A DNA stretch of 64,000 nt from Chloroflexota bacterium (lineage in GTDB: Bacteria; Chloroflexota; Anaerolineae; Promineifilales; Promineifilaceae), in assembly GCA_024275635.1 (NCBI GenBank), contig JAJRYT010000114.1, positions 28,292-92,291 of the forward strand, given 5' to 3'. Each line of letters begins with the position of its first letter. Positions within the stretch are counted from its first letter, which is position 1. A program made the position numbers and the translations under genes. The notes below the pieces were generated by a model that saw only the letters and a program-made list of their open reading frames with translations, ran no database searches and had not been told where the DNA came from. Of this stretch, positions 3,103 through 63,974 are shown in pieces.

Positions 3103-3135
3103 ATCCTCCCGGAGATTCTGAACCTCCGGGAGGAT
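3103..3135. repeat. perfect 12-bp-stem hairpin, CCTCCCGGAGG family
   Basis: atcctcccggag / ctccgggaggat flank a 9-nt loop. Related copies at 4346-4379 and 59925-59957. Confidence 0.8.
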
Positions 3136-3268
3136 GATTACGATTGTAAAGCGAAATGGCAGAATGACTATTTATCGTTACAATTCATTCATCTTTCCGG
3201 GCAGCGGGTAGGCGGCAGGACACCGTTTTCTGCCTTCTTTCTTTTGCCGTAACTGCTCAGGCAGAACT

Positions 3269-3329
3269 AGACTTTTGAAGTTTCCACTCTGGAATCGCTT
3301 CTCTGTGCCGATCGAAACTTCAAAAGTCT
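3269..3329 (+). promoter_or_regulatory. 5' leader hairpin directly upstream of the lplA RBS
   Basis: Perfect 16-bp inverted repeat agacttttgaagtttc / gaaacttcaaaagtct with a 29-nt loop. It ends 4 nt before GGAGG (3333-3337) and the ATG at 3343. Confidence 0.45.
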
Positions 3330-3342
3330 TAACGGAGGCATC

Positions 3343-4326
3343 ATGCTCTTTGTTGATAATCAAAACCACACCGACCCGCGCACGAATCTGGCAATTGAAG
3401 AACATCTGCTGCGTAACGCGCGCGTGGACGAGCCTATTTTGCTGTTTTACATCAACGAGCCGTCGGTCATCATTGGCCGGAACCAGAACACGCTGGAAGA
3501 AATTGACCCTGATTACGTTGAGGCCAACAGTATTCATGTCGTGCGGCGGCTCTCCGGCGGCGGCGCAGTTTATCACGATTTTGGCAACCTCAATTTCAGC
3601 TTTATCACCAACGGCAAGGAAGATTTGCACAACTTTGCCAAGTTCACCGACCCTGTTATTCATGTCCTGCGCGATTTGGGCGTTGACGCTGCGCTGCATG
3701 GCAAGAGCGATATTTTTGTGGCCGGTAAAAAGGTGTCGGGCAACGCGCAGTATCTGACGCGCGGCCGGATGTTCAGCCACGGCACGCTGCTGTTTGATTC
3801 TAATTTGGAGGAACTGCTGAAGGCGATTAACCCGCGCCGGGTGAAGATTGAATCGAAGGCGGTGCAGTCTATCCGCAGTTTTGTGACCAATATCCGCGAC
3901 CATTTGCCGGAAGCGATGGATATACGCCAATTGAAGCAGGCGATTTTGCGCGGCGTGTTTGCCGGCAGCGAGGTGGCAACGTATGATCTGACGGCCGATG
4001 ATTGGGCACAAATCGAGCGGTATCGCGCCCAGCGGTACGATACTTGGGAGTGGAATATCGGCCGTTCGCCCAAATTTACGGTGCAAAAGAGCGAGCGTTT
4101 CCCCATCGGCAAGGTGGACGTGCGGATTGATGTGGCGCGGGGGCGCATCCAGGGGGTCAAAATCTACGGCGATTTTATGGGCAAACGGGAGGTGGCCGAG
4201 TTGGAGAATCGTTTGATTGGGCTGCGGTATGAACGGGGGGCGTTGGCAACGGCCGTGCAGCAAATGGAGATCGCCGCCTACTTCGGCCCCCTGGCCCCGT
4301 CCGACCTTCTAAAATTGTTGTATTAA
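3343..4326 (+). CDS. lplA: lipoate-protein ligase A
   Basis: TNLAIEEHLL...RRLSGGGAVYHDFGNLNFSFI...GKSDIFVAGKKVSGNAQY matches the LplA/BPL-LPL catalytic domain, with a C-terminal LplA accessory domain. Good SD. Confidence 0.9.
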   Translation: MLFVDNQNHTDPRTNLAIEEHLLRNARVDEPILLFYINEPSVIIGRNQNTLEEIDPDYVEANSIHVVRRLSGGGAVYHDFGNLNFSFITNGKEDLHNFAKFTDPVIHVLRDLGVDAALHGKSDIFVAGKKVSGNAQYLTRGRMFSHGTLLFDSNLEELLKAINPRRVKIESKAVQSIRSFVTNIRDHLPEAMDIRQLKQAILRGVFAGSEVATYDLTADDWAQIERYRAQRYDTWEWNIGRSPKFTVQKSERFPIGKVDVRIDVARGRIQGVKIYGDFMGKREVAELENRLIGLRYERGALATAVQQMEIAAYFGPLAPSDLLKLLY

Positions 4327-4345
4327 CCTGCCGTCAAATCGCGGA

Positions 4346-4379
4346 ATCCTCCCAGAGGTTCCCAACCTCCGGGAGGATG
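4346..4379. terminator. hairpin between convergent genes (CCTCCCGGAGG family)
   Basis: atcctcccagagg ... cctccgggaggat, 13-bp stem with one mismatch, between the lplA stop (4326) and the stop of the minus-strand gene (4386). Confidence 0.5.
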
Positions 4380-4385: not shown

Positions 4386-5042
4386 TTACGACGCCACCAC
4401 CCAGCCCAACTGCTCCAACTGCTGCGGCGACGCGGCCAATGCCACCTGCGCGATGGCCTTGTAATCGGCCAGCCATTGGTCCAGTTCATCCAGCTTGGCG
4501 TCCCGCGTTTTTGTTGCCGTCTGCGCTTCGCCCCGTTCCTTATCCTGTGTCTCGCTGGCCGTGGCCACCGCCTCCACCAGCGCCGCTTCCGCTTCCAACT
4601 TCGTTTGGTCGTAGCTGTACGGAGTCATCGTCGCAATAAAGTCGGGGCTGCGCAGCAGGTTGTTGTAAAAGCGGCGCGCCTGATCCAGCCAGCCGCTCAG
4701 GCTTTGCTTGCGGGAGCCGCTCAACCCCAGCGCATTGCGCGCCGTTTCGTTGCCGCGAAAGGCGATGCGGGCGATTTTGAGGGCGGCGCTGTAGGCCGCG
4801 CCGGCCGCGTCCCATGCTTGCCGCACGGCCTGGGTCGCCTCGTACTGTTCGCCGTACTCCTGCTTTTGCTGTTCGTCCAGCGTTCGCGCCTCCTGGTACA
4901 GGGCGCGCGCCGCTTCCAGGCGGGTCTGGTCGTAGCCGAAGCTGGTGACTTTGGCCAGGATGTCGGGGTTGGACAGGCTGTTGTTGATGGCCAGTTCGGC
5001 GTCCAACAGCCGCTGGGCAATACTTTTGGTTGGCTTTGCCAT
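4386..5042 (-). CDS. hypothetical protein (helical, internally repetitive)
   Basis: Long ORF. ATG at 5042 is preceded by AGGAGG, so I prefer it to the ORF-track start at 5090. No recognisable domain. Confidence 0.6.
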   Translation of the reverse strand: MAKPTKSIAQRLLDAELAINNSLSNPDILAKVTSFGYDQTRLEAARALYQEARTLDEQQKQEYGEQYEATQAVRQAWDAAGAAYSAALKIARIAFRGNETARNALGLSGSRKQSLSGWLDQARRFYNNLLRSPDFIATMTPYSYDQTKLEAEAALVEAVATASETQDKERGEAQTATKTRDAKLDELDQWLADYKAIAQVALAASPQQLEQLGWVVAS

Positions 5043-5230
5043 GATAAAACCTCCTATGGGGTGATAAAATGCCCAAACCGGGCGGCCCAAAAGGGCTTGA
5101 AAATAACCGAATCAGAATGACGTTTTATCCCCGGAGGCCGGAAAAGGGTCTCAGGTGGATGAAACGCGGCTGAATCGGATGAAAAACAAGAGAATGGTCT
5201 GAAAATTAGGTGAAAAGTTGTCGTTTAGCT

Positions 5231-5419
5231 CCCCCTAAAGCTCATTTAATCGTTCCTGACACGCGTTGAGTCGTTCCTATGGCTCGTTGAGTCATCCCTA
5301 AAGCTCATTGAGCCGTTCCTGACACGCGTTGAGTCATTCCTAAACATTATTTGGTTATTCCTAAGGCTTGTTGGGCGGCTCCTAAGGCTCATTTGGTCAT
5401 CCCTATGGCTCGTTTTGTT
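5231..5419. repeat. 9 contiguous degenerate 21-bp tandem repeats
   Basis: Units such as gttcctgacacgcgttgagtc, gttcctatggctcgttgagtc and atccctaaagctcattgagcc. Conserved TCCT and GCTC-TT columns. No spacers between units. Confidence 0.85.
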
Positions 5420-5614
5420 ATTGTCGGGGATTATAGCGGGGAAACGGCCGTTTTGCACGCATTTTTTGTTGGGTTTTATGGGGGTTGGGCGGGGGAACGG
5501 TCTCTAAATAAATATTTAAGCAGGGTTCAATTATGCTGAAATCATCTTTACAATTAACCTGTTTTAACAGGTTTCCCTCTTTAGTGAGCGTCCATTAAAT
5601 AAGTTCCCTGTTTT

Positions 5615-5672
5615 GAGACTGGAGACTGGTTAACTGGAGACTGGCAGTCTCCAATCTCCAATCCCTAGTCTC
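5615..5672. repeat. heptamer hairpin, GGAGACT/AGTCTCC family
   Basis: gagactggagactgg...ggagactggcagtctccaatctccaatccctagtctc. Tandem 7-mers on both arms. Confidence 0.8.
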
Positions 5673-5826
5673 AGGAAGTAATTTTTAGATGCTCACTTAG
5701 CGGGGCATTTCAATGCCCCGTGATGGCGGCCATATTGTAAAGATTAATTGTTCAGTTTTGAACCATGCCCTTTTTTCGCTCTTTGCTGTTTTGTACCTTT
5801 GATTAGGGTTCCTGACACTTTTTCAC

Positions 5827-7043: not shown

Positions 7044-7073
7044 TTTATAACTTTGGCGTTTGAAAAATTGTAA
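7044..7073 (-). promoter_or_regulatory. possible sigma70-type promoter for the TIR-RDD gene
   Basis: On the minus strand, TTACAA - 18 nt - TATAAA, about 45 nt upstream of the ATG at 6999. Confidence 0.3.
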
Positions 7074-7125
7074 CCAGGTAATTGGTAACTGGTAATTACC
7101 TGGTTACTCAATTACCAATTACCAG
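7071..7125. repeat. heptamer hairpin, GGTAATT/AATTACC family
   Basis: ccaggtaattggtaactggtaattacctgg palindrome followed by ttactcaattaccaattaccag. Confidence 0.8.
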
Positions 7126-7296: not shown

Positions 7297-8055
7297 CTAG
7301 GACAAGACGTGGGGGTAATCACTTGTCAATAATTGGAAAAGGCGCGGCGTCATATTTCGCCGCTCAACGTGGGCAATAAGCGCCATGATTTTGGTCGTCT
7401 TAGCTTCACTACCCTCTAAATTCTCATAATCAATATCTAGATCAAAAGCAACTTGTTTCACCTCATTTACACTCAGCCTATCACCGAGTCGCTTGCGTAA
7501 TTCATTTTGGGGCATGACCGGAACCTCAAATAGTTTCTCTTTAATTGGCGCGATATGAGAAGTATTTGCCTTGTTGGGTACGGCCGTTGACTTTTTCAAG
7601 ATATGATCAACGAGATCCTCAACACCTTTGGCAATTTCGGTAAATGCATCGTCGCGATTGGGGTATTCTGTGACTGGCGTCGCATTGCGGGGAAGCGCCT
7701 GCAGATTGGTGTACGGTTGGCTGCTCCAATCACACTTACGGAGTATGATCGGCACCACGTAAGCCGTTCCCTCTTCATGGCGTTTCATAGCTGACTTGAG
7801 TTCGTTATCCCAGATAGAATCTGAGGCGATGAAGTCAACACTTATCAAGAGTAAGATGATATTTGCCTTGTTTAATTCAGACATAATGGTCTGATCCCGC
7901 TCCTGCCCACCCAGAAGCTCCCTGTCGTTCCACGTCTGGATTTTTGAGGAACGCTTTAATACCTTTAAGTGCTTATCCAATTCCTTTTTCAAATCTTCGT
8001 CTTCATGGACATAAGAAATAAAGACGGAAACGCCGGATTGGGAACCTTCTATCAT
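7297..8055 (-). CDS. TIR domain protein with C-terminal effector-associated (Death-like adaptor) domain
   Basis: VFISYVHEDEDLKKEL...ILLLISVDFIASDSIWDNEL...VVPIILRKCDW...LQALP is a TIR_2-type domain. The C-terminal ~70 aa (VKQVAFDLDIDYENLEGS...IMALIAHVERRNM...LFQLL) resembles EAD-type adaptor modules. Confidence 0.75.
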   Translation of the reverse strand: MIEGSQSGVSVFISYVHEDEDLKKELDKHLKVLKRSSKIQTWNDRELLGGQERDQTIMSELNKANIILLLISVDFIASDSIWDNELKSAMKRHEEGTAYVVPIILRKCDWSSQPYTNLQALPRNATPVTEYPNRDDAFTEIAKGVEDLVDHILKKSTAVPNKANTSHIAPIKEKLFEVPVMPQNELRKRLGDRLSVNEVKQVAFDLDIDYENLEGSEAKTTKIMALIAHVERRNMTPRLFQLLTSDYPHVLS

Positions 8056-9618: not shown

Positions 9619-11031
9619 TTACGGCGCGTCTTCGTGCCAGGGATACTTTTCGGCCAATGATTGGTAAAGGGTGATAGCTGTCTCTGTGCCTCCCAATCGT
9701 TCCATCAACGCCGCCGCCCACCAGGCGGCGAAGGGGGCGTCCGGGCCGTCGGGGAATTGGGCGGTGTAATCGAGGTAAAGGGTGACGGCCGTTTCCGCTT
9801 GCCCGGCGCGGGCCATCATTTTAGCCCGTTCCAGCAGCGCGCCCGCCGGCTCGATGGCCGCGTAAGCGTCCAACTGCGCCTGCGCCGCCGCCAAATCCCC
9901 CAGCGCCTCATACGACCAGGCCAGGTAAAGGTAGGCGTCGGCGCGGAAGTCGTCCGGGTTGGCGGCCAGATAGCGTTGGAAGGCGGCGATGGCCGGGTCG
10001 TAGGCGTTGGCGTAATAATCCACCAGCCCGCGCTGGAATTCGTCCACCGGCACGCCGGCCTCGACCAGGGCGACGAGGGCCAGGTAGCTTTCGTAGGCGC
10101 GGGGGTAGTCGTTGACGCCGGTCAGGTAGCGCTGGTAGGCGGCGCTGGCATCGCCGGCATTGAGGACGGCCGTTCCCGCCAGGTAAGTCATCTGCCCGCG
10201 CGTGTTTTCGGTGATGGCCAGATCGTGAATGGCGTCATACTGGGCGGCGGCGGCGGCGTAACTCTCGCCTGCCAGGTACAAATCGGCCAATGTTTGCCGG
10301 ATGGCGATGTGGGTCAGCCGGTGGGCGGGCGCGTCCAGGGCGGCTTCGTAGGCAGCGACGGCCAATTCTTGGCCGTTGGCCGTTTCCCGTTCCCCCAGCG
10401 CCAGATAATCGGCGGCAATACGCGGCTGGACATAGGCGGCCATTTCCGGGTTGGCGGCCAGATAGGCTTGATAAGCGGCGATGGCGTTCTGGTAATCGGC
10501 CGTGCCGTCGAGGGACAAGGCCAGTAGGAATCGGGTTTCGGGGGGTGGGTTATTGGTAATTAGTAATTGGGTAAATGTGTCGGCGGCGGGGGCGAAACGG
10601 CCGTCTTGCAGGTAACTTTTGCCTAAATTGAGCAGCGATTCGGTTTGTTGGGCGTCGGTTAGCGCGCCGGGTTGGCTGAGGCTGGATTCAAATTGGGAAA
10701 CGGCCGTTTCCCAATCGCCTTCCGCCAGAGCCTGCTCGCCCAGGGCGATGCGGGTGGCGGGCAGCGGCGTGGCCGTCGGCGTGGGGCTGGGCGTGAAGGT
10801 GGGCGACGGGCCGATAGTGGGCGGCGGCGGGTCGGTGGGCAGGCCAGGGATGAGGGTAGGCGTGGGCTGGGCAGCGGCGGTTGGCTCTTGCGCCAGCGGG
10901 GTGGGCGCGGACGGCGCGTCGGCGCAGGCGGCCAGCAGCCAGAGCAGGAGGAGAATGATGAATGGTGAATGATGAATGATGAATGATGAATACGGCCGTT
11001 CACCATTCACCATTCGCAATTCATCATTCAT
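9619..11031 (-). CDS. TPR-repeat lipoprotein-like protein (probable N-terminal part of a TPR-SLT transglycosylase)
   Basis: Repeated ...A.A...Y..YL...P TPR-like units. LLLLWLLAAC lipobox-like signal. The first ~25 codons are encoded by a heptamer hairpin, so the start is uncertain. Confidence 0.75.
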   Translation of the reverse strand: MNDELRMVNGERPYSSFIIHHSPFIILLLLWLLAACADAPSAPTPLAQEPTAAAQPTPTLIPGLPTDPPPPTIGPSPTFTPSPTPTATPLPATRIALGEQALAEGDWETAVSQFESSLSQPGALTDAQQTESLLNLGKSYLQDGRFAPAADTFTQLLITNNPPPETRFLLALSLDGTADYQNAIAAYQAYLAANPEMAAYVQPRIAADYLALGERETANGQELAVAAYEAALDAPAHRLTHIAIRQTLADLYLAGESYAAAAAQYDAIHDLAITENTRGQMTYLAGTAVLNAGDASAAYQRYLTGVNDYPRAYESYLALVALVEAGVPVDEFQRGLVDYYANAYDPAIAAFQRYLAANPDDFRADAYLYLAWSYEALGDLAAAQAQLDAYAAIEPAGALLERAKMMARAGQAETAVTLYLDYTAQFPDGPDAPFAAWWAAALMERLGGTETAITLYQSLAEKYPWHEDAP

Positions 11032-12365: not shown

Positions 12366-13025
12366 CTAGTCGCCAGTCTTTAGCTGGTAGACAGCGCCGG
12401 TTACTCCTTCGTATTGGAGGTTGGCGAGGGTTTGGGCAACGGCCGTTCTATCCAGTTCCCCCGTATTGGCCGTCAATTCTAACGCCTGCCATAACAGTTG
12501 AAACGCATCGTAAGCCGAAGCGGCATACGGCCCGGCCGTTTCGTCAAACGGGGTGACGGCCTCGTAAGCCTGGGTGAAATCGGCGGGCAGCAGGGCCGGG
12601 TCGTATTGGCCGATGGGAGCCTCTCCGGCGGGGAGAAAGGGCAGTCTGGCGGCGGCGTAGATGGGCGCGGCGGCCTGTGTCGTGTCCGGCTGCCAGTGCC
12701 CGATGACGGCGACGACGGCCGTATCAATGACGAGCGATTGGGCAACTTCCTGCGCCAACTCCGGGTCGCCGCCGTCGTCCAGCGCCACTAGAGCTACCCG
12801 ATAGCCGCCAATTCCGCCCGCTGCATTAATCTGGCGCACCGCCAGCCGGGCGCTGTAAATCACATCATATCCCACCGCCCGTTGCTGCCCCTCAAACGGC
12901 GCAACCAGGCCGATTTTGACGACAGGGGCGACGCTGGCGCAACTTGTGAGGAGGGAAAGGATTAATAGATTAAAGATTAAAGGATTGAAGATTGAAAATT
13001 GAAGATTGGACGATATTTTAATCAT
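12366..13025 (-). CDS. short periplasmic binding protein (type I, LivK/amide-binding-like), probably truncated
   Basis: VKIGLVAPFEGQQRAVGYDVIYSARLAVRQINAAGGIGGYRVALVALDDGGDP is a type I PBP N-lobe. Only ~220 aa. The signal peptide is encoded by a heptamer repeat. Confidence 0.6.
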   Translation of the reverse strand: MIKISSNLQFSIFNPLIFNLLILSLLTSCASVAPVVKIGLVAPFEGQQRAVGYDVIYSARLAVRQINAAGGIGGYRVALVALDDGGDPELAQEVAQSLVIDTAVVAVIGHWQPDTTQAAAPIYAAARLPFLPAGEAPIGQYDPALLPADFTQAYEAVTPFDETAGPYAASAYDAFQLLWQALELTANTGELDRTAVAQTLANLQYEGVTGAVYQLKTGD

Positions 13026-46213: not shown

Positions 46214-46219
46214 TGACTA

Positions 46220-53451: not shown

Positions 53452-53453
53452 AC

Positions 53454-54317: not shown

Positions 54318-54321
54318 GATT

Positions 54322-55274: not shown

Positions 55275-56427
55275 CCTGCACCCTCCGGCGCAGCCGTTCC
55301 CCCGCCGCCTGCAACGTTTCGATTTTCTTGGCAAAGGCAAAGCGAATCAGATTCGTCCCCATGTCCGGCGTGCCGAAAAAGGCGGAGCCGGGCACAACCG
55401 ACACCCCTAGATGCTGCGGCAGCCAGCGGGCCAGGTCAAAATCGTCGCCATCAAACGCCCAGCCGCTGAAATCGGCCATGACGTAGTATGCTCCTTGCGG
55501 TGGTTGGGCGGCCAGGCCGATGTCGTCCAAAATTTTCATCATCAACGCCCGGCGTTCGGCGTAATCCCGTTTGAGCTGCGTGTAGTAATCGTCCGGCAGA
55601 TTAAGAGCGGTCACGGCCGCCGCCTGCAGCGGCGCGGCGGCGCAAATGGTCGTAAAGTCGTGGACGGTACGCAGAGCGGTACTCAATGCTGCCGGCGCGC
55701 AGGCGTAGCCCAACCGCCAGCCGGTAGCGGCATACGTCTTGCCCAGGCCGCCAATCGTCACCGTCCGTTCGGCCAGGCCGGGAATGGTAGCGGGGGGGAT
55801 GTGGGCGCGGCCGTCATACACGATAAACTCATAAATCTCATCCGTGATCAGCGCCACGTCAAACGCATCACAAAGCGCGGCTACCCCTTCTAGTTCGGCG
55901 CGGGTGAAGACATGCCCCGTCGGGTTGTGTGGCGTGTTCAGGATGATCGCCTTCGTATTTTGATTAAACGCCGCTCGCAGCCGCTCTAAATCCAGGGCAT
56001 AATCCGGCGCTTCCAGGGCCACAAAGCGCGGGCTGGCTCCGGTAAACGTCACCGCTGGGGCGTACCCCTCGTGGAACGGCTCAATGATGATCACCTCGTC
56101 GCCCGGATTACACAGGCTCATCAGCGTCGCCGCAATCGCCTCCGTCACGCCGCAGGTGACAGTGACGTGCTTATCCGGGTCAAAATCCAGGCCGTACAAC
56201 CGCGCCATCTTGGCGGCAATCGCCTGGCGCAGCGCCGGGTTGCCCCAGGTGATGGTGTACTGGTTGGCCCCTTCGTCCAGCGCCCGGTGCGCCGCGGTAA
56301 TCACCTCTGGCGGCGGCCCAAAGTCGGGAAAACCCTGCGACAGGTTGATAGTTTGGTGCTGAATTGCCAGCCGCGTCATTTCGCGGATAAACGATTCGCG
56401 CATACCGGATAATCGTTGTGCAAACAT
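55267..56427 (-). CDS. class I/II pyridoxal-phosphate aminotransferase
   Basis: INLSQGFPDF..P......A.......NQYT...G...LR.AIA... and SLGKTYAATGWRLGY (PLP-Lys context). Start set at MFAQRLSGM. Confidence 0.85.
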   Translation of the reverse strand: MFAQRLSGMRESFIREMTRLAIQHQTINLSQGFPDFGPPPEVITAAHRALDEGANQYTITWGNPALRQAIAAKMARLYGLDFDPDKHVTVTCGVTEAIAATLMSLCNPGDEVIIIEPFHEGYAPAVTFTGASPRFVALEAPDYALDLERLRAAFNQNTKAIILNTPHNPTGHVFTRAELEGVAALCDAFDVALITDEIYEFIVYDGRAHIPPATIPGLAERTVTIGGLGKTYAATGWRLGYACAPAALSTALRTVHDFTTICAAAPLQAAAVTALNLPDDYYTQLKRDYAERRALMMKILDDIGLAAQPPQGAYYVMADFSGWAFDGDDFDLARWLPQHLGVSVVPGSAFFGTPDMGTNLIRFAFAKKIETLQAAGERLRRRVQDV

Positions 56428-56428
56428 A

Positions 56429-57682
56429 TTACGCTTCCTGTATGGTAACGGCCGGCCGGAGCAAAAATGAACCAACCAGACCCAAGACGGATACGCCCCC
56501 GGCCAGCAAAAAAGCGGGCGCAAACGAGCCAGCAGCGTCGGCGATGGCCCCGGCGACGCCTGGCCCCAATGCCTGCCCAATGCCAAAAAATAACGTGAGA
56601 AATCCCAGCGCCGCCGGGGCCAGCCGGGAGCCGAGCAAGTCGCCGCAAGTGGCCGACATGATGGCCGGGATACTCCAGGCTGATAGACCGAACAAAACGG
56701 CCGATACCGTCAGCCCGGCCGGCGTCGGCCACAGGGCGAACAGGCTGAAGGCAATTGCGTGAAACAGGTAGACGCCCATCAGCGCCAGTTTACGTCCGAT
56801 CACGTCCGACACTGTCCCCCACAGCAGGCCGCACAGCAGGCTGAACCAGCCCATCGTCATAAACAACGACCCGGCTGCCGCCGCCGTGTAGCCCGCTTCG
56901 GCGATCAGGTACTTGGTGAAAAAGGTGATGTAAATGATGTAAGCAAACCCAAAAGCGGAATAGACCAATCCCAGATGCCAGACCGCGCCCGACCGGTAAA
57001 CGCGCGGCCAATCAACCGGCCGCCGGGCGGGGCGGGGGGGCGGCGGTTCGTCTGACTCATCGCCCAACGGCCCCAGCCCTTTGTCGCCGGGATGGTCGCG
57101 CAGCAGCAGCCAGACCAGGACGGCTAACGCCAGCGTGACGCCGCCGAAAACAATCCAGGTCAGCCGCCAGCCATTCTCGCCGTTGGCGGCCAGGATGCGG
57201 GGCACGGTCGGCCCGATGAGGATGATGGCCAGCGACGAGCCGGAGACGACGATTCCCGACGCCAGGCCGCGCCGCCGGGGAGCAAACCAGGCGGTCATCA
57301 AGCCCATCACCGGCACGTTGCTGGCGCCGCTGCCGACGCCGGTCAGCAAGCGCCAGACGGCCGCCGCCAGGAAGCCTCCCGCCAACCCCGTCAGCGCCAT
57401 GCCGCCGCCCACCAGCGCTACGCCCAGCGCGATCACCCGGCGCGGCCCGTAGCGGGCGGCCAGCATCCCGCCAATCAAGGAGAGCGCCAGGTAGCCGACC
57501 ACGTTGGCCGAGGCCAGGACGCCGGCCTGGGTGTTGTCCAACTTCAGGCTGGTTTGCATGGCGGGCAGCAGCATCGTGTAACCGAAGCGGGCCAATCCTA
57601 GCACGCCAAACACGACCAGCGTGCCCATGATGAGTACGATCCAGCCGTAGTGGAGGCGATGCGTAGCGGGTGTAGTTTCCAT
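56429..57682 (-). CDS. MFS transporter
   Basis: ~12 predicted TM helices and a G..A.RYGPRRV-type loop 2-3 motif. 417 aa. Confidence 0.8.
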   Translation of the reverse strand: METTPATHRLHYGWIVLIMGTLVVFGVLGLARFGYTMLLPAMQTSLKLDNTQAGVLASANVVGYLALSLIGGMLAARYGPRRVIALGVALVGGGMALTGLAGGFLAAAVWRLLTGVGSGASNVPVMGLMTAWFAPRRRGLASGIVVSGSSLAIILIGPTVPRILAANGENGWRLTWIVFGGVTLALAVLVWLLLRDHPGDKGLGPLGDESDEPPPPRPARRPVDWPRVYRSGAVWHLGLVYSAFGFAYIIYITFFTKYLIAEAGYTAAAAGSLFMTMGWFSLLCGLLWGTVSDVIGRKLALMGVYLFHAIAFSLFALWPTPAGLTVSAVLFGLSAWSIPAIMSATCGDLLGSRLAPAALGFLTLFFGIGQALGPGVAGAIADAAGSFAPAFLLAGGVSVLGLVGSFLLRPAVTIQEA

Positions 57683-57688
57683 GATTTT

Positions 57689-57755
57689 GGGGATTAGAGA
57701 CTGGAGATTAGAGATTTGAGACTGGTAATCTCTAATCTTCAGTCTCTAGTCTCTC
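57689..57755. repeat. heptamer hairpin, TAGAGAC/GGAGATT family
   Basis: gggattagagactggagattagagatttgagactggtaatctctaatcttcagtctctagtctctc. Confidence 0.8.
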
Positions 57756-59597
57756 GCCTAGTCCTTCAATTTCCGCCTGTCGTTCAGTCGGCACACGGCC
57801 GTCCGCGTCCCAACCTCTTTCTTCATAATACTCATCCAGCATTCGCTGGAACTGTTCCCGGTCTACGTGATGCCCTTTCGTTTTGCGGGCGGGCATGGGA
57901 TCGTCAAAATAACGCTTGGGCAGCGTGTCGTCGGCGCGGGAGAGGCCGAAGTCGGCGTTGATCAGCCGCTCCGTATCCAGCGCCCGGCGGCCGACTTCGC
58001 GCAGGCTCTCCGGGGTAAATTTCAGCCCGGCGGCGGCGGCGATCAGGTCGCAAAAATGGTCGTAACCCAGCAAATGGGGGCTGTTGAAACCGTGCGTCAC
58101 GAACTTGCAAATGCCCAGGCTGTCGGTGACGGCGAAGATGTCGTCGCCCCAGGCGACGATCAGCCCTTTGTCTTTGTAGCCGGTGGGATCGGGGTCGTTG
58201 GGGCGGCCGTAAATCTTCTCTCTCACCTCATCCGGCAGCTTGAATACTTCCAGCGTCGGCCGGTTGCGCAAATGATCCGCCCCCCGGCTGGCGACGGCGA
58301 TGCCCAGGGCAAACCCCTTGAAATAACGCACGTCGTGCGGGTCAGACTGGGGCAGCCCCTTGACGGCGATCAGGTAATCCTGCGCTTCCGGCGGAAAAAA
58401 ACGGATCGCCCGCGTGCTTTCCGCCAGCACGTCGCCAAAGCCGCGCCGGTGGGCGATGTCCTCGATCAGGCCGTGAACGGTCTCGTAATCGCCCCAATTA
58501 AGCGGCCCGCCGGTCAAGTCGTCGCCAATCAGGCCGCGCTGGTACAGTTCCATCGCCCAGGCGATGATCGTGCCCACCGAGGAAGCGTCCAGCCCCAAAT
58601 CATTAACCAGGTTGTTGAGCGTGATCACCTGGTCGGTAGGGGCGATGCCCAGGTTGGCCCCCAGCAGGCCGATGGTGGAGTATTCCGGCCCTTCGCCGCC
58701 CAGGGTGTTGCGGTGGCGGCAGTGGACGACGCAGGAGGTGCAGGCCAGCATCTTGTCGGAGTATTTCTCGATCTCCTCGGCGTTGAGGCTGTCCTCGAAG
58801 TAGTTGTCCTGGCTGTTGCGGGTGCGGATCGCCCCCAGCCGGTTGCTGACTTCGTAGAGGAGCGGCGTGCCGACGTGGCCCAGCACCTGCACGATTTTGG
58901 AGCTTTTGAGGTATTTCTGCTGCTGGATGCGGACGGCGCGCAGCGTCTCTTTTTGGGCGACAGCAATCGCTTTGCCGCCGCGGGCGACGACGGCTTTGAG
59001 GTTTTTGCTGCCCATCACCGCGCCCATGCCGCCGCGGCCGGCGGTGTTTTTCTGGCCGGTCATCACGCCGGCCATGCGCACTTTGTTTTCGCCGGCCGGG
59101 CCGATGACGGCCGAGATCGTCCCCCGGCCGAACCGTTCTTTCAAGGCGTTCTGGGCGGGCATGTTTTCCAGCCCCCACAGGTCGCTGGCGTCCTGGACGT
59201 GGACACGGCCGTCTTCCAGCAGGATGAGCGACGGCCGTTCGGCCCGCCCCAAAATCACCAGCCGGTCAAAGCCCGCCTTGCGCATCGCCGCCGCAAAAAA
59301 GCCGCCGCAGTTGGCGTCGCCCAAAATACCGCTCTCCGGCGATTTGGCGGAGACGTTGAAGCGGGCGGCGTTGGGGGCAATCGTCCCCGTCAGCAGCCCT
59401 GCGCCGAAGATGAGCGGGTTGTCCGGCCCCAGCGGATCAACCTGGCGGGGATCGCCGGCGGCGTGCAGGTAGCGGCGCAGGTAGGCCATGTTCAGCCCCC
59501 GGCCGCCCAGGTACGCCCGCACCAGCTCCGGCGGCGTTTCTCCGACCCGCACCTCTCCCGTTGTCAGGTTGATAATCGCTGTGGTTGATTCACTCAT
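57732..59597 (-). CDS. aor: aldehyde:ferredoxin oxidoreductase (tungstopterin AOR family)
   Basis: N-terminal AOR domain (INLTTGEVRV...YLGGRGL...) and a C-terminal AFOR domain with a CxxCxxxC-type cluster region (ACTSCVVHC). 621 aa. Confidence 0.9.
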   Translation of the reverse strand: MSESTTAIINLTTGEVRVGETPPELVRAYLGGRGLNMAYLRRYLHAAGDPRQVDPLGPDNPLIFGAGLLTGTIAPNAARFNVSAKSPESGILGDANCGGFFAAAMRKAGFDRLVILGRAERPSLILLEDGRVHVQDASDLWGLENMPAQNALKERFGRGTISAVIGPAGENKVRMAGVMTGQKNTAGRGGMGAVMGSKNLKAVVARGGKAIAVAQKETLRAVRIQQQKYLKSSKIVQVLGHVGTPLLYEVSNRLGAIRTRNSQDNYFEDSLNAEEIEKYSDKMLACTSCVVHCRHRNTLGGEGPEYSTIGLLGANLGIAPTDQVITLNNLVNDLGLDASSVGTIIAWAMELYQRGLIGDDLTGGPLNWGDYETVHGLIEDIAHRRGFGDVLAESTRAIRFFPPEAQDYLIAVKGLPQSDPHDVRYFKGFALGIAVASRGADHLRNRPTLEVFKLPDEVREKIYGRPNDPDPTGYKDKGLIVAWGDDIFAVTDSLGICKFVTHGFNSPHLLGYDHFCDLIAAAAGLKFTPESLREVGRRALDTERLINADFGLSRADDTLPKRYFDDPMPARKTKGHHVDREQFQRMLDEYYEERGWDADGRVPTERQAEIEGLGERLETED

Positions 59598-59660
59598 TAC
59601 TCATTACTCATTACTCATTACTCATTACTCATTACTCATTACTCATTACTCATTGCTCAT
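59591..59660. repeat. pure tandem heptamer array (TTACTCA)x~10, no inverted partner
   Basis: cactcat tactcat x8 tgctcat. The first unit overlaps the aor start codon (59595-59597) and the array extends upstream of it. Confidence 0.9.
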
Positions 59661-59663
59661 TTA

Positions 59664-59915
59664 TTACCCGCCGGCAATGGGCCAGACGAGGTGGACGTGA
59701 CGGCCGTCCCCCAACACCGTCGCCTCATCCGCCTCATCCTCGCCCACAAACAACAGCGGCGGCGCATCGGCAAACTCCTGCGCCAGCGCCGGGTACTGCG
59801 CCAGCAGCGCCGCCAGCAAATCCGCCATCCGCGATCCGGCCGCTAGTTCCACGTCCAGATTACGCTGACCCACGACCCGCCAAAACGGTTCCGCCAGCCG
59901 CACGTGTACGTTCAT
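59664..59915 (-). CDS. MoaD/ThiS-family ubiquitin-like beta-grasp protein (C-terminal GG)
   Basis: 83 aa ending ...VHLVWPIAGG. Size and Gly-Gly terminus are typical of MoaD/ThiS sulfur carriers. Adjacent to aor. Confidence 0.6.
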   Translation of the reverse strand: MNVHVRLAEPFWRVVGQRNLDVELAAGSRMADLLAALLAQYPALAQEFADAPPLLFVGEDEADEATVLGDGRHVHLVWPIAGG

Positions 59916-59924
59916 CGGTGAAAA

Positions 59925-59957
59925 AACCTCCGGGAGGTTCCGAACCTCCCGGAGGTT
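59925..59957. repeat. 15-bp perfect hairpin, CCTCCCGGAGG family
   Basis: aacctccgggaggtt-ccg-aacctcccggaggtt, between the paaK stop and the moaD-like start. Confidence 0.85.
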
Positions 59958-59963
59958 GAAATC

Positions 59964-61283
59964 TCAGCCCTTATACAAATCCCGCTTATCCACAATCCGC
60001 TTCGCCTTGCCGATAGAGCGTTCAATCGAATGCGGCCCGGTCAGCTTCACCTCAGCCCGGATACCCAGAGCGTCGTTCAGATGTGCTTCAGTGGCGGCCC
60101 GCAAATTTTCCAACGCGCCCGTGTCAATCGGCTCAAAGAAGCGTTGGTTCGCCTCGACCCAGATTTCCAGCTTGTCCAACTGCTCCTGAGTCCGGTCTAC
60201 AATAATCTGGTACTGCGGCTCCAGACCTTCGACACTCAGGAGCGTTTTTTCGATGAGTGACGGGAACACGTTCACGCCGCGCACAATCAACATGTCGTCG
60301 GAACGGCCGCGAATCTTCTCCATGCGCACCATCGTCCGGCCGCAGGCGCACTTCTCCGCGTGCAGCACCGTCAAATCGCGAGTGCGGTAGCGGAGAATAG
60401 GCATCGCTTCCTTCGTCAGCGTGGTGAAGACCAGTTCCCCTTCCTCGCCGTAGGGCAGCTGCTCGCCCGTGTTCGGGTCAATGATTTCGGCCAGGAAATG
60501 ATCCTCATTGATGTGCAGCCCGTTGTGATGCTCGCACTCCACCGACACGCCGGGGCCGATAATCTCCGTCAGGCCATAAATGTCATACGCCTCAATGCCC
60601 AGTCGGGCCTGAATTTCCTGGCGCATCTCTTCTGTCCACGGCTCTGCGCCAAAAATGCCCACCCGTACTTTCATCCGAGACTTAAAATCAATACCTAGTT
60701 CGGCCGCTTCCTCGGCCAGCACCAGCGAGTAAGAGGGGGTGGCGGTCATCACCGTCGCCCCGAAATCCTCCAGCAGCATAATCTGCCGCCGCGTCATACC
60801 GCCGGAAACAGGCACCACCGTTGCCCCCACTGTTTGGAACCCCAGGTGGAAGCCCAAACCGCCGGTGAACAACCCGTAGCCATACGCATTGTGAGCGACG
60901 TCCTTGTCCGTTACGCCGCAGGAAGTAACCGTGCGCGCCATTACCTCGGCCCACAATTTCAAATCATTCTGTGTGTAACCGCCAACAACCGGCTTGCCGG
61001 TCGTGCCGCTGGAAGCGTGCAGGCGAATCACTTCTTCCAGAGGAACAGCGAAATTGTTGAACGGGTACTCATCACGCAAATCTTGCTTGGTGGTGAATGG
61101 CAGTCGTTTTAGATCATCCAGCCCTTTAATCTCATCCGGCGCGATGCCCAACGCCTTAAATTTGCGCTGGTACATTGGAATTTTGTTAAAGGTGTAGGCG
61201 GCGATTTTGCTCAGCCGTTCCCCCTGGAGTTTCTCCAGGTCGCCGCGTTCCATACTCTCAAATTCAGGGTTCCACATTGGCAT
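59964..61283 (-). CDS. paaK: phenylacetate--CoA ligase
   Basis: WNPEFESMERGDLEKLQGERL...SSGTTGKP...YGLTE..GPGV..EC... and a C-terminal ACT-like tail. ~439 aa, typical PaaK. Confidence 0.9.
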   Translation of the reverse strand: MPMWNPEFESMERGDLEKLQGERLSKIAAYTFNKIPMYQRKFKALGIAPDEIKGLDDLKRLPFTTKQDLRDEYPFNNFAVPLEEVIRLHASSGTTGKPVVGGYTQNDLKLWAEVMARTVTSCGVTDKDVAHNAYGYGLFTGGLGFHLGFQTVGATVVPVSGGMTRRQIMLLEDFGATVMTATPSYSLVLAEEAAELGIDFKSRMKVRVGIFGAEPWTEEMRQEIQARLGIEAYDIYGLTEIIGPGVSVECEHHNGLHINEDHFLAEIIDPNTGEQLPYGEEGELVFTTLTKEAMPILRYRTRDLTVLHAEKCACGRTMVRMEKIRGRSDDMLIVRGVNVFPSLIEKTLLSVEGLEPQYQIIVDRTQEQLDKLEIWVEANQRFFEPIDTGALENLRAATEAHLNDALGIRAEVKLTGPHSIERSIGKAKRIVDKRDLYKG

Positions 61284-61300
61284 AGTTTTCCTCCCAAAGT

Positions 61301-61398
61301 AATTGTCAATTGTGAATTGTCAATTGACAATTGTTAATTCATTGTTTGTCGCCAGGTCTCATTCACAATTTATCGTTCACAATTCATCATTTACAATT
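61301..61398. repeat. heptamer hairpin, CAATTGT/ATTCACA family
   Basis: aattgtcaattgtgaattgtcaattgacaattgttaattcattg...attcacaatttatcgttcacaattcatcatttacaatt. Confidence 0.8.
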
Positions 61399-61999
61399 AG
61401 TCCCCTAGTTCCCACGCTCCTTCTCGTCCGGCTAAAAAGGCTTTGCGGTTGACCTCTTTGTGACGGGCGGGCACTTTTTCCATGATTACCTCTAACCAGG
61501 GCTGTTCGTCTTCGGCCAGTTCGGCCGAGAGCGCGCCCAGCAGGACGCTGTTGGCGGTGCGCCGGTTGCCCAGGCTTTCGGCGACGCCGACGGCGTCGAG
61601 CGCCAGCAGTTTGCCGGCGATCTGGCCGATGGTGGTGAATATCCGCTCTTTATCCGGGTAGACGGCGCTGCCAAAAACTGTGCCTGTCGGCGGCAGCTCT
61701 TGCTGGCTGAGGATGACGGTTCCGCCGGGCCGCAAATATTCCAGCCAGCGCATCGCTTCCAACATTTCCTGAGCGACAAAGAAATCTACAGTTCCTTTTT
61801 CGCAGAGGGGGGAGGCGACTTTTTCGCCCCAGCGCACGTGGCTGGTGACGGCGCCGCCCCGTTGGGACATGCAGTGTACTTCGGATTTTTTGGCTTCTAG
61901 CCCCTGGCGCAGGCCTACTTCGGCAACGATGTCGCTGGCCAGCAGGGTCCCCTGCCCGCCGACGCCGGCGAGTAGAAAGTTGGCTTTTTTGTTGGTCAT
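61397..61999 (-). CDS. iorB: indolepyruvate:ferredoxin oxidoreductase subunit beta
   Basis: NFLLAGVGGQGTLLASDIVAEV.....V...E.HGMSQRGG-type motif (here HCMSQRGGAV). ~200 aa, directly downstream of iorA. Confidence 0.85.
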   Translation of the reverse strand: MTNKKANFLLAGVGGQGTLLASDIVAEVGLRQGLEAKKSEVHCMSQRGGAVTSHVRWGEKVASPLCEKGTVDFFVAQEMLEAMRWLEYLRPGGTVILSQQELPPTGTVFGSAVYPDKERIFTTIGQIAGKLLALDAVGVAESLGNRRTANSVLLGALSAELAEDEQPWLEVIMEKVPARHKEVNRKAFLAGREGAWELGD

Positions 62000-62015
62000 A
62001 ATTTCTCCTTTTTCG

Positions 62016-62108
62016 ATTGGGAAACTGGAGATTGAAGAGTGGAGACTAGAGACTGGAGACTGCCTGTCTCCAAATCTCCAATCTCTAGCCTTCAGTCTCT
62101 AATCTCTC
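62016..62108. repeat. heptamer hairpin, GGAGACT/TAGAGAC family
   Basis: attgggaaactggagattgaagagtggagactagagactggagactgcctgtctccaaatctccaatctctagccttcagtctctaatctc. Confidence 0.85.
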
Positions 62109-63899
62109 TCATGCAGCCATCACCGGGATTTCTTTGCCGGGTTCGATTGCCTGCCGGGCGCAGACGTCGTAGCAGAGGCCGCAGCCGACACATTGAACCG
62201 GGTCAATCCACGCTTTGGGGCGCTGTGTTTTTTCGTCTAATTCGTCGCTCTTGAAGATGGCCGGGCAGCCGATGCGGAAGCAGAGGGTGCAGCCGTTGCA
62301 GTCGTCGTTATGGACGATGTAGGGTTCGCGGTTGTGGCTGGTCTCGAAGACGCAGATGGTGCGGGCGACGATGACGGCCGGTTCGCCCGATTTTTGCGCT
62401 TCTTTGATGGTGTTCTGCATCTCTTTCAGTTCGCGGGCTTCTAGCTCGTACACGTGTTTGACGCCCAGGGCGCGGGCGACTGCGGCGATGTCAATGCGGT
62501 GGCCGTGTTCGCCGCGCAGGGTTTCGCCGGAGCCGGGGTTGCCCTGGTGTCCGGTCATGCCAGTGGTGCGGTTGTCTACGACGATGACGACGATGGGGGT
62601 GTTGTTGTAAACGGCCGTTGCCAGCGCCGATAACCCCGAATGGAAAAAGGTGCTGTCCCCAATCACCGCCACATTCTCTTTTTCCAGCCCGGCGTGCCGC
62701 ATTCCCATGGCCACGCCGATGCTGGCCCCCATCGCGCCGATGGTATCGCTCGATTCCAGCGGCGGCAGGACGCCCAGGGCGTAACAGCCGATGTCGGAAT
62801 TGACCGTCACCTTCAGCCGACGCAGAGTCCAGAACACGTCCCGGTGGCCGCAGCCGGCGCAGAGGACAGGCGGGCGGATGGGCAGCGCGCCTACATCCGG
62901 CGTGTGACCGTTGCCGTTTTTAGCCAGAACGCCGGCTTCAACCGCCGCCGCCCGCACCCGTTCCGGCGTCAATTCGCCAATGGCCGGGAAGATGCTCTTA
63001 CCTTCCACAGCGATGCCCATTTGACGCACGTGCTCTTCGATGAACGGCTCCAGCTCTTCGATGATCAGCAGCCGGTCTACCTGGGCGGCGAAGTCGCGGA
63101 TTTTTTGTTCCGGCATGGGCCAGGCCATTCCTAATTTGAGGATGGAGGCGTTGGGGAAGATTTCGCGGGCGTACTGGAAGGCGGCGCCGGCGGAGATGAT
63201 GCCGATTTTCTTGTCGCCCCATTCGATGGTGTTGATGGCGCAGGTTTCGGCCCACTGGCGCAGTTTTGCAGTGCGTTCCTCGATGACGGGATGGCGGCGG
63301 CGGGCGTAGGCGGGGATCATGACGAATTTGGGCGGGTTTTTGATGTACGGCCGTTTCTCCTTCGTCTCCCGGTCTTCCAACGTGATCACCGACTTGGCGT
63401 GCGAGGTGCGCGTAGTGGTGCGGATCAGAACCGGCGTATCATGTTCTTCACTCAACGCCAACGCCAGGGCCACAAACTCCTTCGCCTCCTGACTGTCCGA
63501 CGGCTCCAGCATGGGCGCTTTGGCGAAGCGGGCGTAGTTTCGGTTGTCCTGCTCGTTTTGCGAGGAGTGCATACCGGGATCATCGGCGGTGATGATGACC
63601 AGCCCGGCGTTGACGCCAGTGTAGGAGGCGTAAAACAGCGCTTCGGAAGCGACGTTGAGGCCGACGTGTTTCATCACCGCCATCGTCCGCCGCCCGGCGT
63701 AGGCTGAGCCGATGGCCGTATCCAGCGCCACCTTCTCGTTCGCCGCCCACTCCGAATAAATATCGTCGTACAGGGCGACGTTCTGTAAAATCTCTGTGCT
63801 GGGCGTGCCCGGATAAGCCGTCGCTACCTCCACGCCCGCTTCCCAGGCTCCCCGCGCCAATGCTTCGTTGCCACTCATCAATGCTTTATCCATAGTCAA
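62109..63899 (-). CDS. iorA: indolepyruvate:ferredoxin oxidoreductase subunit alpha
   Basis: MSGNEALARGAWEAGV..A.AYPGTPSTEI, a TPP-binding region (GDSTFFHSG) and a C-terminal 2x[4Fe-4S] motif CNGCTLC...CP / CVGCGLCYDVC. Confidence 0.9.
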   Translation of the reverse strand: MTMDKALMSGNEALARGAWEAGVEVATAYPGTPSTEILQNVALYDDIYSEWAANEKVALDTAIGSAYAGRRTMAVMKHVGLNVASEALFYASYTGVNAGLVIITADDPGMHSSQNEQDNRNYARFAKAPMLEPSDSQEAKEFVALALALSEEHDTPVLIRTTTRTSHAKSVITLEDRETKEKRPYIKNPPKFVMIPAYARRRHPVIEERTAKLRQWAETCAINTIEWGDKKIGIISAGAAFQYAREIFPNASILKLGMAWPMPEQKIRDFAAQVDRLLIIEELEPFIEEHVRQMGIAVEGKSIFPAIGELTPERVRAAAVEAGVLAKNGNGHTPDVGALPIRPPVLCAGCGHRDVFWTLRRLKVTVNSDIGCYALGVLPPLESSDTIGAMGASIGVAMGMRHAGLEKENVAVIGDSTFFHSGLSALATAVYNNTPIVVIVVDNRTTGMTGHQGNPGSGETLRGEHGHRIDIAAVARALGVKHVYELEARELKEMQNTIKEAQKSGEPAVIVARTICVFETSHNREPYIVHNDDCNGCTLCFRIGCPAIFKSDELDEKTQRPKAWIDPVQCVGCGLCYDVCARQAIEPGKEIPVMAA

Positions 63900-63910
63900 C
63901 CTCCACGTAT

Positions 63911-63974
63911 GGGAGATTAGAGATTGGAGATTAAGTCTCCAATCTCTATCTCTAGTCTCTAGTCTCTAGTCTCT
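63911..63974. repeat. heptamer hairpin, GGAGATT/TAGTCTC family
   Basis: gggagattagagattggagattaagtctccaatctctatctctagtctctagtctctagtctc. Confidence 0.8.

Follow-up and report, generated by a model that had tools for sequence, protein, structure and literature searches.

The heptamer units of the short tandemly repeated repetitive (STRR) sequences STRR1-3 reportedly are CCCCAGT, TTGGTCA, and CAACAGT, as described by Mazel in 1990. Repeats of this class are described here from a 64-kb stretch of DNA (64,000 nucleotides of contig JAJRYT010000114.1, positions 28,292 to 92,291; hereafter the window), where heptamer hairpins in intergenic DNA of an Anaerolineales genome can be identified with high confidence as STRR-type simple-sequence-repeat arrays standing in inverted pairs. 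In filamentous cyanobacteria, STRR hairpins lie between hupS and hupL, and a role in stability or translational coupling has been proposed for them (PMC2670836); in Nostoc, deletion of heptamer arrays near recO alters regulation (bioRxiv 10.1101/2022.06.06.494920). The GGGAATC heptamers of Xanthomonas form 70-75 convergent pairs per genome, which are stem-loop-capable, mostly intergenic, and transcribed (Rehm et al. 2015, PMC4692102); they lie between co-oriented genes, near one open reading frame (ORF), and their lengths vary between related strains while the single or paired type is kept (PMC4692102). In the 5'-untranslated region (UTR) of hmw1A in H. influenzae, (ATCTTTC)n is one arm of a long RNA hairpin that is cut by RNase III, setting expression, and the hairpin, transcription, and RNase III are all needed for a change in unit number (PMC12721329); no other mechanism is known to have been tested for a structure of this kind. 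Direct heptamers of the sequence TAACTGA occur upstream of start codons in Beggiatoaceae, cyanobacteria, and Bacteroidetes, essentially as one unit in one orientation (1 inverted case in 170 sets), and a translational role has been proposed for them (MacGregor 2015, PMC4679880). Within the Chloroflexota, Chloroflexus aurantiacus carries (GATAGRA)n satellites (PMC6749651). A search of the searchable library found no paper tying heptamer repeats to the Anaerolineae. A further point of comparison is provided by the repetitive extragenic palindromic (REP) sequences and bacterial interspersed mosaic elements (BIMEs; also REPINs) of enterobacteria and pseudomonads, which are intergenic, often intercistronic, hairpin-forming, high-copy stabilisers of mRNA 3' ends, the REPs being copies of a conserved 20-40-nt palindrome linked to the RAYT transposase.

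An ungapped inverted-repeat scan of the window (score of at least 11, loop of 3-40 nt, ten shuffles as control) recovered 40 hairpins, compared with 0-3 in shuffled sequence. The great majority (35/40) fall within the 13% of the window without predicted gene cover, taken here as non-coding, and 2 further hairpins (10953 and 12979) count as coding solely through over-extended ORF starts. When the intergenic pieces were scanned alone, 30 hairpins were found, against 0-1 after each piece had been shuffled. A lag-p self-match scan for tandem periods, with dinucleotide-preserving shuffles as control, gave 21 tracts of period 7 (0.1 in shuffles), 4 tracts of period 9, and 0-2 tracts for periods 4-6, 8, and 10-12; Tandem Repeats Finder (TRF) returned about 45 period-7 rows for the whole window. 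RNA folding of 14 hairpins yielded energies of -21 to -46 kcal/mol (z = -3.8 to -11.9) and predicted stems of 20-35 bp. The hairpins match no known RNA family, since an Rfam scan of the window at gathering thresholds had tRNA-Leu as its sole match. An assembly or low-complexity artefact, the explanation that an earlier first-pass annotation of this DNA had set against its own, is rejected because the arrays are flanked by intact ORFs and similar structures occur in many independent assemblies.

True inverted heptamer arrays account for about 19 of the hairpins and are built of four unit families (GGAGAYT/AGAGAYT/GGGGATT; GAAGATT/AAAGATT/GATGATT; GTGAATT/GTCAATT/GATGAAT/GGTGAAT; and GGTAATY/AGTAATT), and three hairpins (11939, 31485, and 52517) are arrays of 9-mers. 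Within the 64 kb, the 7-nt units stand head to tail in tandem, are imperfect, and are dispersed in intergenic DNA, as is characteristic of STRR sequences. GGGGATT, present 14 times, and GGAGACT, present 18 times, each differ by 1-2 mismatches from the unit given above for STRR1 when this is read as its complement; GGGGACT is not enriched (2 copies). The first-pass annotation had counted more than 30 loci with heptamer arms, in seven families. The period-7 hairpins are real, and the GGAGACT, GGTAATT, GAATTGT, and GATTGAA loci that it listed are all inverted heptamer arrays; the number built of heptamers, however, is the 19 or so given above, and three of the seven families are other kinds of element. 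Two of its loci, 49217 and 49454, are the arms of a single hairpin, about 197 nt apart, and its GATTGAA locus at 29871 holds 2 units only.

The minus-strand cluster at 41.7-64 kb carries some hairpin at 15 of its 19 junctions, 9 of them heptamer hairpins, and one further junction holds a direct array, (AATGAGT)x10, rather than a hairpin. The earlier statement that hairpins separate the genes of one co-directional cluster is borne out, and the occupied junctions include that between subunits of one enzyme, the alpha and beta subunits of indolepyruvate:ferredoxin oxidoreductase (IOR). This 23-kb cluster is a catabolic pathway of the aromatic amino-acid/4-hydroxyphenylacetate type; besides IOR alpha and beta, it encodes a PaaK-like ligase, aldehyde:ferredoxin oxidoreductase (AOR), an MFS transporter, an aminotransferase, a DHDPS-like enzyme, a hydrolase, an FAA hydrolase (FAH), an aldehyde dehydrogenase (ALDH), HpaB, an extradiol dioxygenase, aconitase-like subunits, an acyl-CoA dehydrogenase (ACAD), and an isocitrate/isopropylmalate dehydrogenase (IDH). 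The housekeeping genes alaS, ruvX, and mltG are likewise flanked by heptamer hairpins, so the hairpins are not peculiar to one island. The host, judged from the relatives of its proteins, is an Anaerolineales (Chloroflexota) bacterium and not a cyanobacterium, the frame implied by the first-pass annotation: the best genome matches of HpaB are Anaerolineales metagenome-assembled genomes (MAGs; 79-86% identity), the AOR homologues are annotated as Anaerolineales, Anaerolineae, or Chloroflexi, and the relatives of AlaS, also from Anaerolineales/Chloroflexota MAGs, reach at most 68% identity over full length in metagenomes. The heptamer and 9-mer arrays of the window are as follows (a strand is given where one was assigned).

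5615-5663: heptamer hairpin, GGAGACT/AGTCTCC family (-31.6 kcal/mol, z -5.8), in the 784-nt gap downstream of an RDD-domain gene
7070-7124: heptamer hairpin, GGTAATT/AATTACC family (z -4.5)
10953-11030: heptamer hairpin, GAATGAT/GGTGAAT family (z -7.5), with the upstream stop codon within the 5' arm (the sense strand being the minus strand) and a copy of ACGGCCGT in the loop
11939-12007: 9-mer hairpin, CACGAATTN x3 facing its complement in a 29-bp stem (-46.1 kcal/mol, z -11.9)
12960-13048: heptamer hairpin, GATTGAA/GATTAAA family (folded), beginning 2 nt past the mltG (YceG) stop codon
14708-14754: heptamer hairpin, GATTGAT family, ending 8 nt ahead of the ruvX ATG
14938-14970: short hairpin, GATTGGGAGATT/AATCTCCCAATC, of less than 2 units, 7 nt past the upstream stop codon
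18129-18183: heptamer hairpin, GGAGACT/GGGGATT family (z -6.4), beginning at the alaS stop codon, the TAG of which is part of a TAGAGAC unit
20887-20959: heptamer hairpin of the GATTGAA/GATTAAA family (folded), situated in the 5' leader of alaS, past a T-run terminator and ahead of the gene's ribosome-binding site
29868-29910: short hairpin, GGAGATTGAGAAATT/AATTTCTCAATCTTC, of 2 units with marginal periodicity (hairpin scan)
31485-31553: partial 9-mer hairpin, CACGAATTN family (TRF and hairpin scan)
41690-41810: heptamer hairpin with unequal arms (GGAGACT, 4.7 units on the plus strand, against CTAATCT/CTAGTCT, 10.4 units), at the ACAD-to-IDH junction
45678-45788: GGTAATY array of 12 units with a 21-nt super-period, facing 4 inverted units, with the 4HBT stop codon in the short arm
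48157-48212: heptamer hairpin, TAGAGAC/GGAGACT family (z -5.0), 1 nt past the dioxygenase stop codon
49217-49491: long-range hairpin, GAATTGT/ATTCACA arms (49217-49256 and 49454-49491) paired over the ~197-nt structured insert, which holds a copy of ACGGCCGT; HpaB stop codon in the arm
50946-51033: heptamer hairpin, GAATTGT/ATTCACA family, 40-nt arms (z -7.1), reaching from the ALDH stop codon to a point 13 nt short of the ATG of HpaB
52517-52588: hairpin at the FAH-to-ALDH junction, composed of 9-mer-like GCGGATTNN units, to which a unit in the related locus L081 is akin
54322-54388: heptamer hairpin, GGAGACT/TAGAGAC family, with the stop codon of the DHDPS-like gene in the arm and the stem ending 12 nt before the next ATG
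57688-57754: heptamer hairpin, GATTAGA/GACTGGA units (z -6.9), with the AOR 3' end in the 5' arm
59592-59661, minus strand: direct array, (AATGAGT)x10 on the sense strand, without an inverted arm, running into the AOR start codon
61301-61398: heptamer hairpin, CAATTGT/GAATTGT against ATTCACA (z -3.8), with the IOR-beta stop codon paired in the stem
62016-62106: heptamer hairpin, GGAGACT/GGAGATT family (z -5.8), filling the 109-nt IOR alpha/beta gap
63911-63974: heptamer hairpin, GGAGATT (3 units) against AGTCTCT (6 units), upstream of IOR alpha

The heptamer hairpins share a polarity and a position with respect to the flanking genes. All 16 period-7 hairpins of the window have more G than C in the 5' arm and a G-poor 3' arm, and the opposite design is absent; because a hairpin is itself under reverse complement, this rule holds on both strands. 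In related Chloroflexota loci, 33 hairpins have the G>C arm at the 5' side against 9 that do not, most of the exceptions being short GC palindromes. Non-periodic hairpins show no such bias (121 versus 102), and the 9-mer hairpins do not obey the rule. At every co-directional junction with a heptamer hairpin (12/12), the upstream gene ends within the 5' arm or at most 3 nt away, its stop codon often belonging to a repeat unit (e.g., TAGAGAC, AATTGTGA), while the distance from the 3' arm to the next start codon is 7-36 nt, leaving space for a ribosome-binding site only. Arrays adjacent to start codons are G-poor on the sense strand, both as hairpin arms (24 versus 6) and as direct arrays (15 versus 10, or about 15 versus 4 by reading once palindromic and GC-noise cases are removed). 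The arms of a hairpin differ in length by whole units (4.7 versus 10.4, 12 versus 4, and 3 versus 6 by TRF). The idea that the G-rich 5' arm provides stop codons in all three frames was rejected as a general rule, since pure (GGAGACT)n has no stop codon in any frame. Repeat arms can also prolong ORF calls, as in the AOR tail ERLETED: the last ~7 codons of AOR and its stop codon are encoded by the 5' arm of the hairpin at 57688-57754, and the homologues end differently.

Set beside the systems described above, the arrays resemble STRR sequences in their 7-nt units, their dispersal in intergenic DNA, the presence of several unit families per genome, and the ability to form hairpins between co-transcribed genes; their commonest unit, GGAGA(C/T)T with GGGGATT variants, is 0-1 mismatch from GGGGA(C/T)T of Nostoc (PMC4692102). 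They differ in that the host is not a cyanobacterium, in having 9-mer analogues, and in that inverted pairs are the rule (about 19 hairpins versus 1 direct array), whereas the GGGGA(C/T)T repeats of Nostoc are mostly unpaired (PMC4692102). The hairpin organisation itself, which the first-pass annotation regarded as what sets these arrays apart from STRR sequences, had already been described for hupS-hupL (PMC2670836). As in Xanthomonas, convergent arrays stand close together with the G-rich arm first (here 16/16). However, the Xanthomonas repeats form one G-tract family for which G-quadruplexes have been proposed, while several unrelated families are found here and G3 is absent from the main units (GGAGACT, GAAGATT, GTGAATT, and GGTAATT), being present only in the minor GGGGATT; moreover, the differences at a given junction go beyond length change to turnover of the unit family. 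The hmw1A hairpin differs in being a single phase-variable locus in a 5'-UTR rather than between cistrons, in having a G-rich non-repeat as its second arm, and in its opposite polarity (C/T-rich arm at the 5' side). Units related to TAACTGA (ACTGAAY/TCAGTWT) occur in two of the related loci, L001 and L083. The comparison with REP/BIME elements drawn in the first-pass annotation does not extend to membership, because heptamer hairpins of one family share only their units, varying in arm length, unit order, loop, and flanks, with no conserved full-length sequence and no RAYT-like gene in the window; within the same window, the CACAGAG element described below does align over its full length. The published record thus already contains STRR hairpins between co-transcribed genes (hupS-hupL) and convergent heptamer pairs (Xanthomonas), and novelty lies here in the lineage of the host, in the prevalence of hairpins that draw on several unit families and have 9-mer analogues, and in the polarity and stop-codon rules. 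The repeat class itself was already known and it is the host that is new, although the arrays are denser than in the published examples compared.

Comparison of orthologous junctions, as the first-pass annotation had suggested, shows different 7- and 9-mer hairpins at the same junction. The nearest relatives at the DNA level are two short fragments (L162 and L163), and 38 related loci bearing AlaS were folded 3' of the stop codon. A 7- or 9-mer array or hairpin was found by reading within a few nt of the alaS stop codon in about 14 of these 38 loci (including L085, L091, L093, L094, L096, L098, L107, L109, L139, L150, L156, and L161), with differing unit families (GGAGAYT, GGTAATT, CRCAGATTN, GGGCAGATT, and CGCAAAGAN). 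In L083, whose AOR shows 87% identity, IOR alpha and beta share a 4-nt overlap (ATGA) and the Shine-Dalgarno sequence lies inside alpha; in the window, the same junction holds the 109-nt GGAGACT hairpin spacer and a new Shine-Dalgarno sequence. At the ThiS-like/AOR junction, the (AATGAGT)x10 array of the window corresponds to a nested ACGC-N-GAGCGT hairpin in L081 and L082 and to a fragment of that hairpin in L083. Other hairpin families occupy the same junctions in L081-L083 as in the window, and L083 has heptamer hairpins of its own (CAGTGAA, GAATTGC, and GAAGATT). Junction occupancy therefore recurs and unit sequence does not, which indicates very fast turnover; gene content around the hairpins is also rearranged between relatives. 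Two very long arrays were observed among the related loci: (TGTTGGG)x12 at the contig end of L061 (1-83), facing (ATCACCY)n, and a 215-nt GCGAGTG/CAGTAAC array in L133 (9772-9986).

The best explanation, to which we attach a probability of about 0.5, is that the arrays are generated by slippage and arm-to-arm copying and transcribed as intercistronic stem-loops, which would act as RNase III substrates, mRNA stabilisers, or translational couplers. Replication slippage would lengthen or shorten one arm by whole 7-nt units, and quasi-palindrome correction through intrastrand template switching would copy arm onto arm, so that the two processes together would produce both unequal arms and mirrored variants; the arrays would be confined to non-coding DNA because a 7-nt insertion or deletion breaks the reading frame. 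Transcribed in polycistronic mRNAs, they would fold into stem-loops of 20-35 bp that begin at the stop codon of one gene and end shortly ahead of the ribosome-binding site of the next. The double-stranded stems may be substrates for RNase III-type processing or barriers to 3' exonucleases, and the near-continuous duplex of at least ~20 bp expected of an RNase III hairpin is reached by the predicted stems. Since the stem begins at the stop codon, a terminating ribosome would melt its base, and downstream translation could in this way be coupled to upstream translation. The G-poor 3' arm may keep false start codons and Shine-Dalgarno-like motifs off the real start. Support for this reading comes from the enrichment of period 7, from the excess of stable, almost exclusively intergenic hairpins, and from their placement relative to stop and start codons, where they part the subunits of an enzyme or successive enzymes of a pathway. 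The proposed origin is supported by the unequal arms, by mirrored variants (15 of 20 deviations from the arm consensus unit recur as the complement in the other arm), and by the hairpin spacer that replaces the ATGA overlap of L083. Junctions that stay occupied while the sequence changes, the shared polarity, and the hupS-hupL and hmw1A precedents also favour the reading. For the functional role as transcribed intercistronic stem-loops, taken by itself, the odds are about even.

Several observations weigh against such a role. The sense fold is the more stable in just 15 of 23 cases, and G:U pairs are equal (73 versus 73); with no asymmetry between sense and antisense, however, this test could not separate function at the RNA level from function at the DNA level. 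The hairpin at 5615 lies ~165 nt from the nearest stop codon. The count of mirrored variants is biased by the register that the scan chose. Many relatives have no hairpin after alaS, where some of the 38 loci run straight into the next gene. Of the two fragments with 85% DNA identity to the window in alaS, L163 has no hairpin, and L162 has a direct array, (GACTACW)x5, in the alaS leader in place of the GATTGAA hairpin. The main rival reading is that the hairpins are a tolerated mutational by-product, arising by slippage and quasi-palindrome copying anywhere and having no useful role, with selection purging only coding DNA and G-rich, start-like or Shine-Dalgarno-like versions beside real starts. 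Very fast turnover with unrelated unit families at the same junction, patchy presence, equal folding of the two strands, unequal arm lengths, and the insertion of a hairpin into a junction that is tightly coupled in a relative (IOR alpha/beta in L083) would all be expected of a by-product, and the polarity could be explained by negative selection on the context of the ribosome-binding site. Less easily accommodated are the extreme density in one operon-like cluster (15/19 junctions), the fact that many diverged genomes have 7- and 9-mer hairpins of separate origin at one and the same position behind alaS, the recurrence of GGAGAYT, GGTAATT, GAAGATT, and GGTGATT where AlaS is only 65-68% identical, and the enrichment at periods 7 and 9 only, although genes equally exclude any period not divisible by 3. 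A by-product is a strong rival, if less probable than the reading above.

Alternatively, the arrays could act as DNA, with the heptads binding an abundant protein, much as direct or inverted arrays of WATCACW heptads are recognised by the ribbon-helix-helix omega protein, or with cruciform or other non-B DNA affecting supercoiling or recombination. The symmetry of the strands and the rearrangement of gene content around the hairpins are compatible with this, as are the strict orientation (head-to-head, never tail-to-tail), which recalls ordered protein-binding heptads, and the 21 bp, or two helical turns, spanned by three units, some arrays having a 21-nt super-period. Yet at least four dissimilar unit families plus 9-mers would require several proteins, placement follows stop and start codons rather than promoters, and no gene for a candidate binding protein was found nearby among the window genes scanned, which makes this explanation quite unlikely. 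Very unlikely, too, are mobile hairpin elements of the MITE or REPIN type with a transposase encoded elsewhere in the genome. Although one unit family occurs at up to 9 loci, the IOR alpha/beta gap is insertion-like, and the separate CACAGAG element is a genuine conserved dispersed copy, heptamer hairpins within a family agree in neither length nor loop nor flank, their lengths vary by whole units instead of being fixed as in MITEs, and no transposase, RAYT, or integrase was found among the ~55 genes of the 64-kb window scanned with Pfam. The reading that is hardest to sustain, and highly improbable, is that the hairpins are terminators lacking a U-tract that end the transcript after nearly every gene. 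The hairpins are indeed strong and begin right after stop codons, but their stems are AT-rich and 20-35 bp long, and they split the subunits of one enzyme and consecutive pathway steps. The first-pass annotation was correct that most stems lack a T-run: of the hairpins that it listed, 61298 and 59944 alone are hit by a terminator scan demanding a T-run behind the stem, and 61298 is the only heptamer hairpin with such a run. Meanwhile, the window has canonical T-run terminators of its own (59925, 27438, 31586, and 20987), and the heptamer hairpin of the alaS 5' leader is located downstream of one of them. The lack of T-runs makes a REP/BIME-like role in mRNA stability or processing, as proposed in the first-pass annotation, more plausible than termination. 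Two other candidates were set aside. Sigma-70-like promoter matches are enriched at 44001-64000 (17 versus 6.1 expected), but nearly all lie inside GAATTGT/ATTCACA hairpins (TTGTCA...CACAAT), so the enrichment is probably a by-product of the unit sequence. Integron attC sites, which came into question because the hairpins separate co-directional genes, were discounted, with no search for attC core sites, on the grounds that the window has no integrase and that the genes belong to a pathway syntenic in relatives and are not cassettes.

Some of the hairpins in the window are not heptamer arrays, among them the following.

46214-46328, no strand assigned: conserved ~115-nt CACAGAG/CACGGAG hairpin element flanking a PD-(D/E)XK_3 gene
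46725-46858, no strand assigned: second copy of the CACAGAG element, on the opposite side of the PD-(D/E)XK_3 gene
53333-53453, no strand assigned: solo copy of the CACAGAG element, found by alignment
59925-59957, minus strand: 15-bp CCTCCGGGAGG hairpin followed by T6, not periodic, consistent with an intrinsic terminator

The CACAGAG loci, which had been listed as a heptamer family, are instead copies of one conserved element of ~115-135 nt that can be aligned from end to end, both among the window copies and with L082 (mean column identity 71%). Two copies bracket the PD-(D/E)XK_3 (PF13366) gene (46329-46724, minus strand), which is located between the aconitase-like large-subunit gene and a small-subunit fusion gene, and L082 has the same bracketed arrangement (4699-5358); it looks like a hairpin-bounded insertion. 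The CCTCCCGGAGG loci, also named as a repeat family, are plain GC hairpins of 12-15 bp without periodicity; besides 59925-59957, they are 3103-3135 and 4346-4378, the latter between convergent genes. A second dispersed family consists of nested hairpins of ACGC-N-GAGCGT and CCACGC...GCGTGG modules, with one copy in the window (43536-43628) and copies at many junctions in L081, L082, and L083. Upstream of alaS (region 20985-21170), a minus-strand ORF of ~27 codons (MNQFSSIIQNSAAAAAGQTSGLDRLCA) precedes a conserved GC hairpin that carries a T-run (20987-21016), an arrangement common to L162; the pair may serve alaS as an attenuator with an alanine-rich leader peptide, or the ORF may be a small gene. 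A stretch of lower GC content (48%) contains the long 784-nt gap (5043-5826), within which a 63-nt tandem repeat is found at 5233-5351 (1.9 copies, 21-nt sub-period), and a TIR/EAD7-domain gene (7297-8055).

Additionally, the window is rich in an octamer palindrome, ACGGCCGT, which is present in 113 copies (1.8 per kb) against 1.8 expected (never more than 6 in 100 shuffles) and outnumbers every other 8-mer by a wide margin (e.g., positions 297, 10992, 24092/24108, 26516/26539, 36792/36816, and 49344). Its density is alike in coding (1.74/kb) and non-coding DNA (1.93/kb), it occurs in all three codon phases, and it falls in density in the catabolic cluster at 48-64 kb. One-mismatch variants are rare (0-12 copies each), and the sites that can be aligned with L162 and L163 are all conserved (5/5). 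Some of the related Chloroflexota loci (L052, L081-L083, L085, L092, L130, and others) are rich in the palindrome (1-2.6/kb), and the rest nearly lack it. It is a HIP1-like highly iterated palindrome outside the cyanobacteria; a literature search found no paper describing it, and it may be a more novel signal than the hairpins. Comparison by eye of heptamer hairpins and ACGGCCGT density across loci revealed no link, the palindrome-free L060, L116, L128, and L157 also carrying hairpins. The heptamer units GGAGAYT/GGGGATT and ACTGAAY echo those of Nostoc and Beggiatoa. A rather unlikely extension of these findings is that the co-occurrence of STRR arrays and an iterated octamer, both usually regarded as hallmarks of cyanobacterial genomes, in a lineage of Anaerolineales reflects a shared, possibly transferable DNA- or RNA-handling machinery that builds and maintains both, in which case the hairpins would be genome-wide sites of cistron processing or coupling and not passive.

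The hairpins probably also break short-read assemblies of Anaerolineales MAGs: several contigs of the closest relatives are just 4-7 kb long, and an array stands at the contig end in L061. Repeat arrays likewise lie at assembly breaks in Elizabethkingia (MacGregor 2015, PMC4679880). The function of STRR sequences has been a question since 1990, and tested data were located for only a few single loci. The Chloroflexota now provide a second, unrelated filamentous phylum with the same element at very high density and with clear positional rules, in which occupancy of the junctions is kept and sequence is not, and from this follow predictions on RNase III processing, on translational coupling, and on the dynamics of slippage that can be put to the test.

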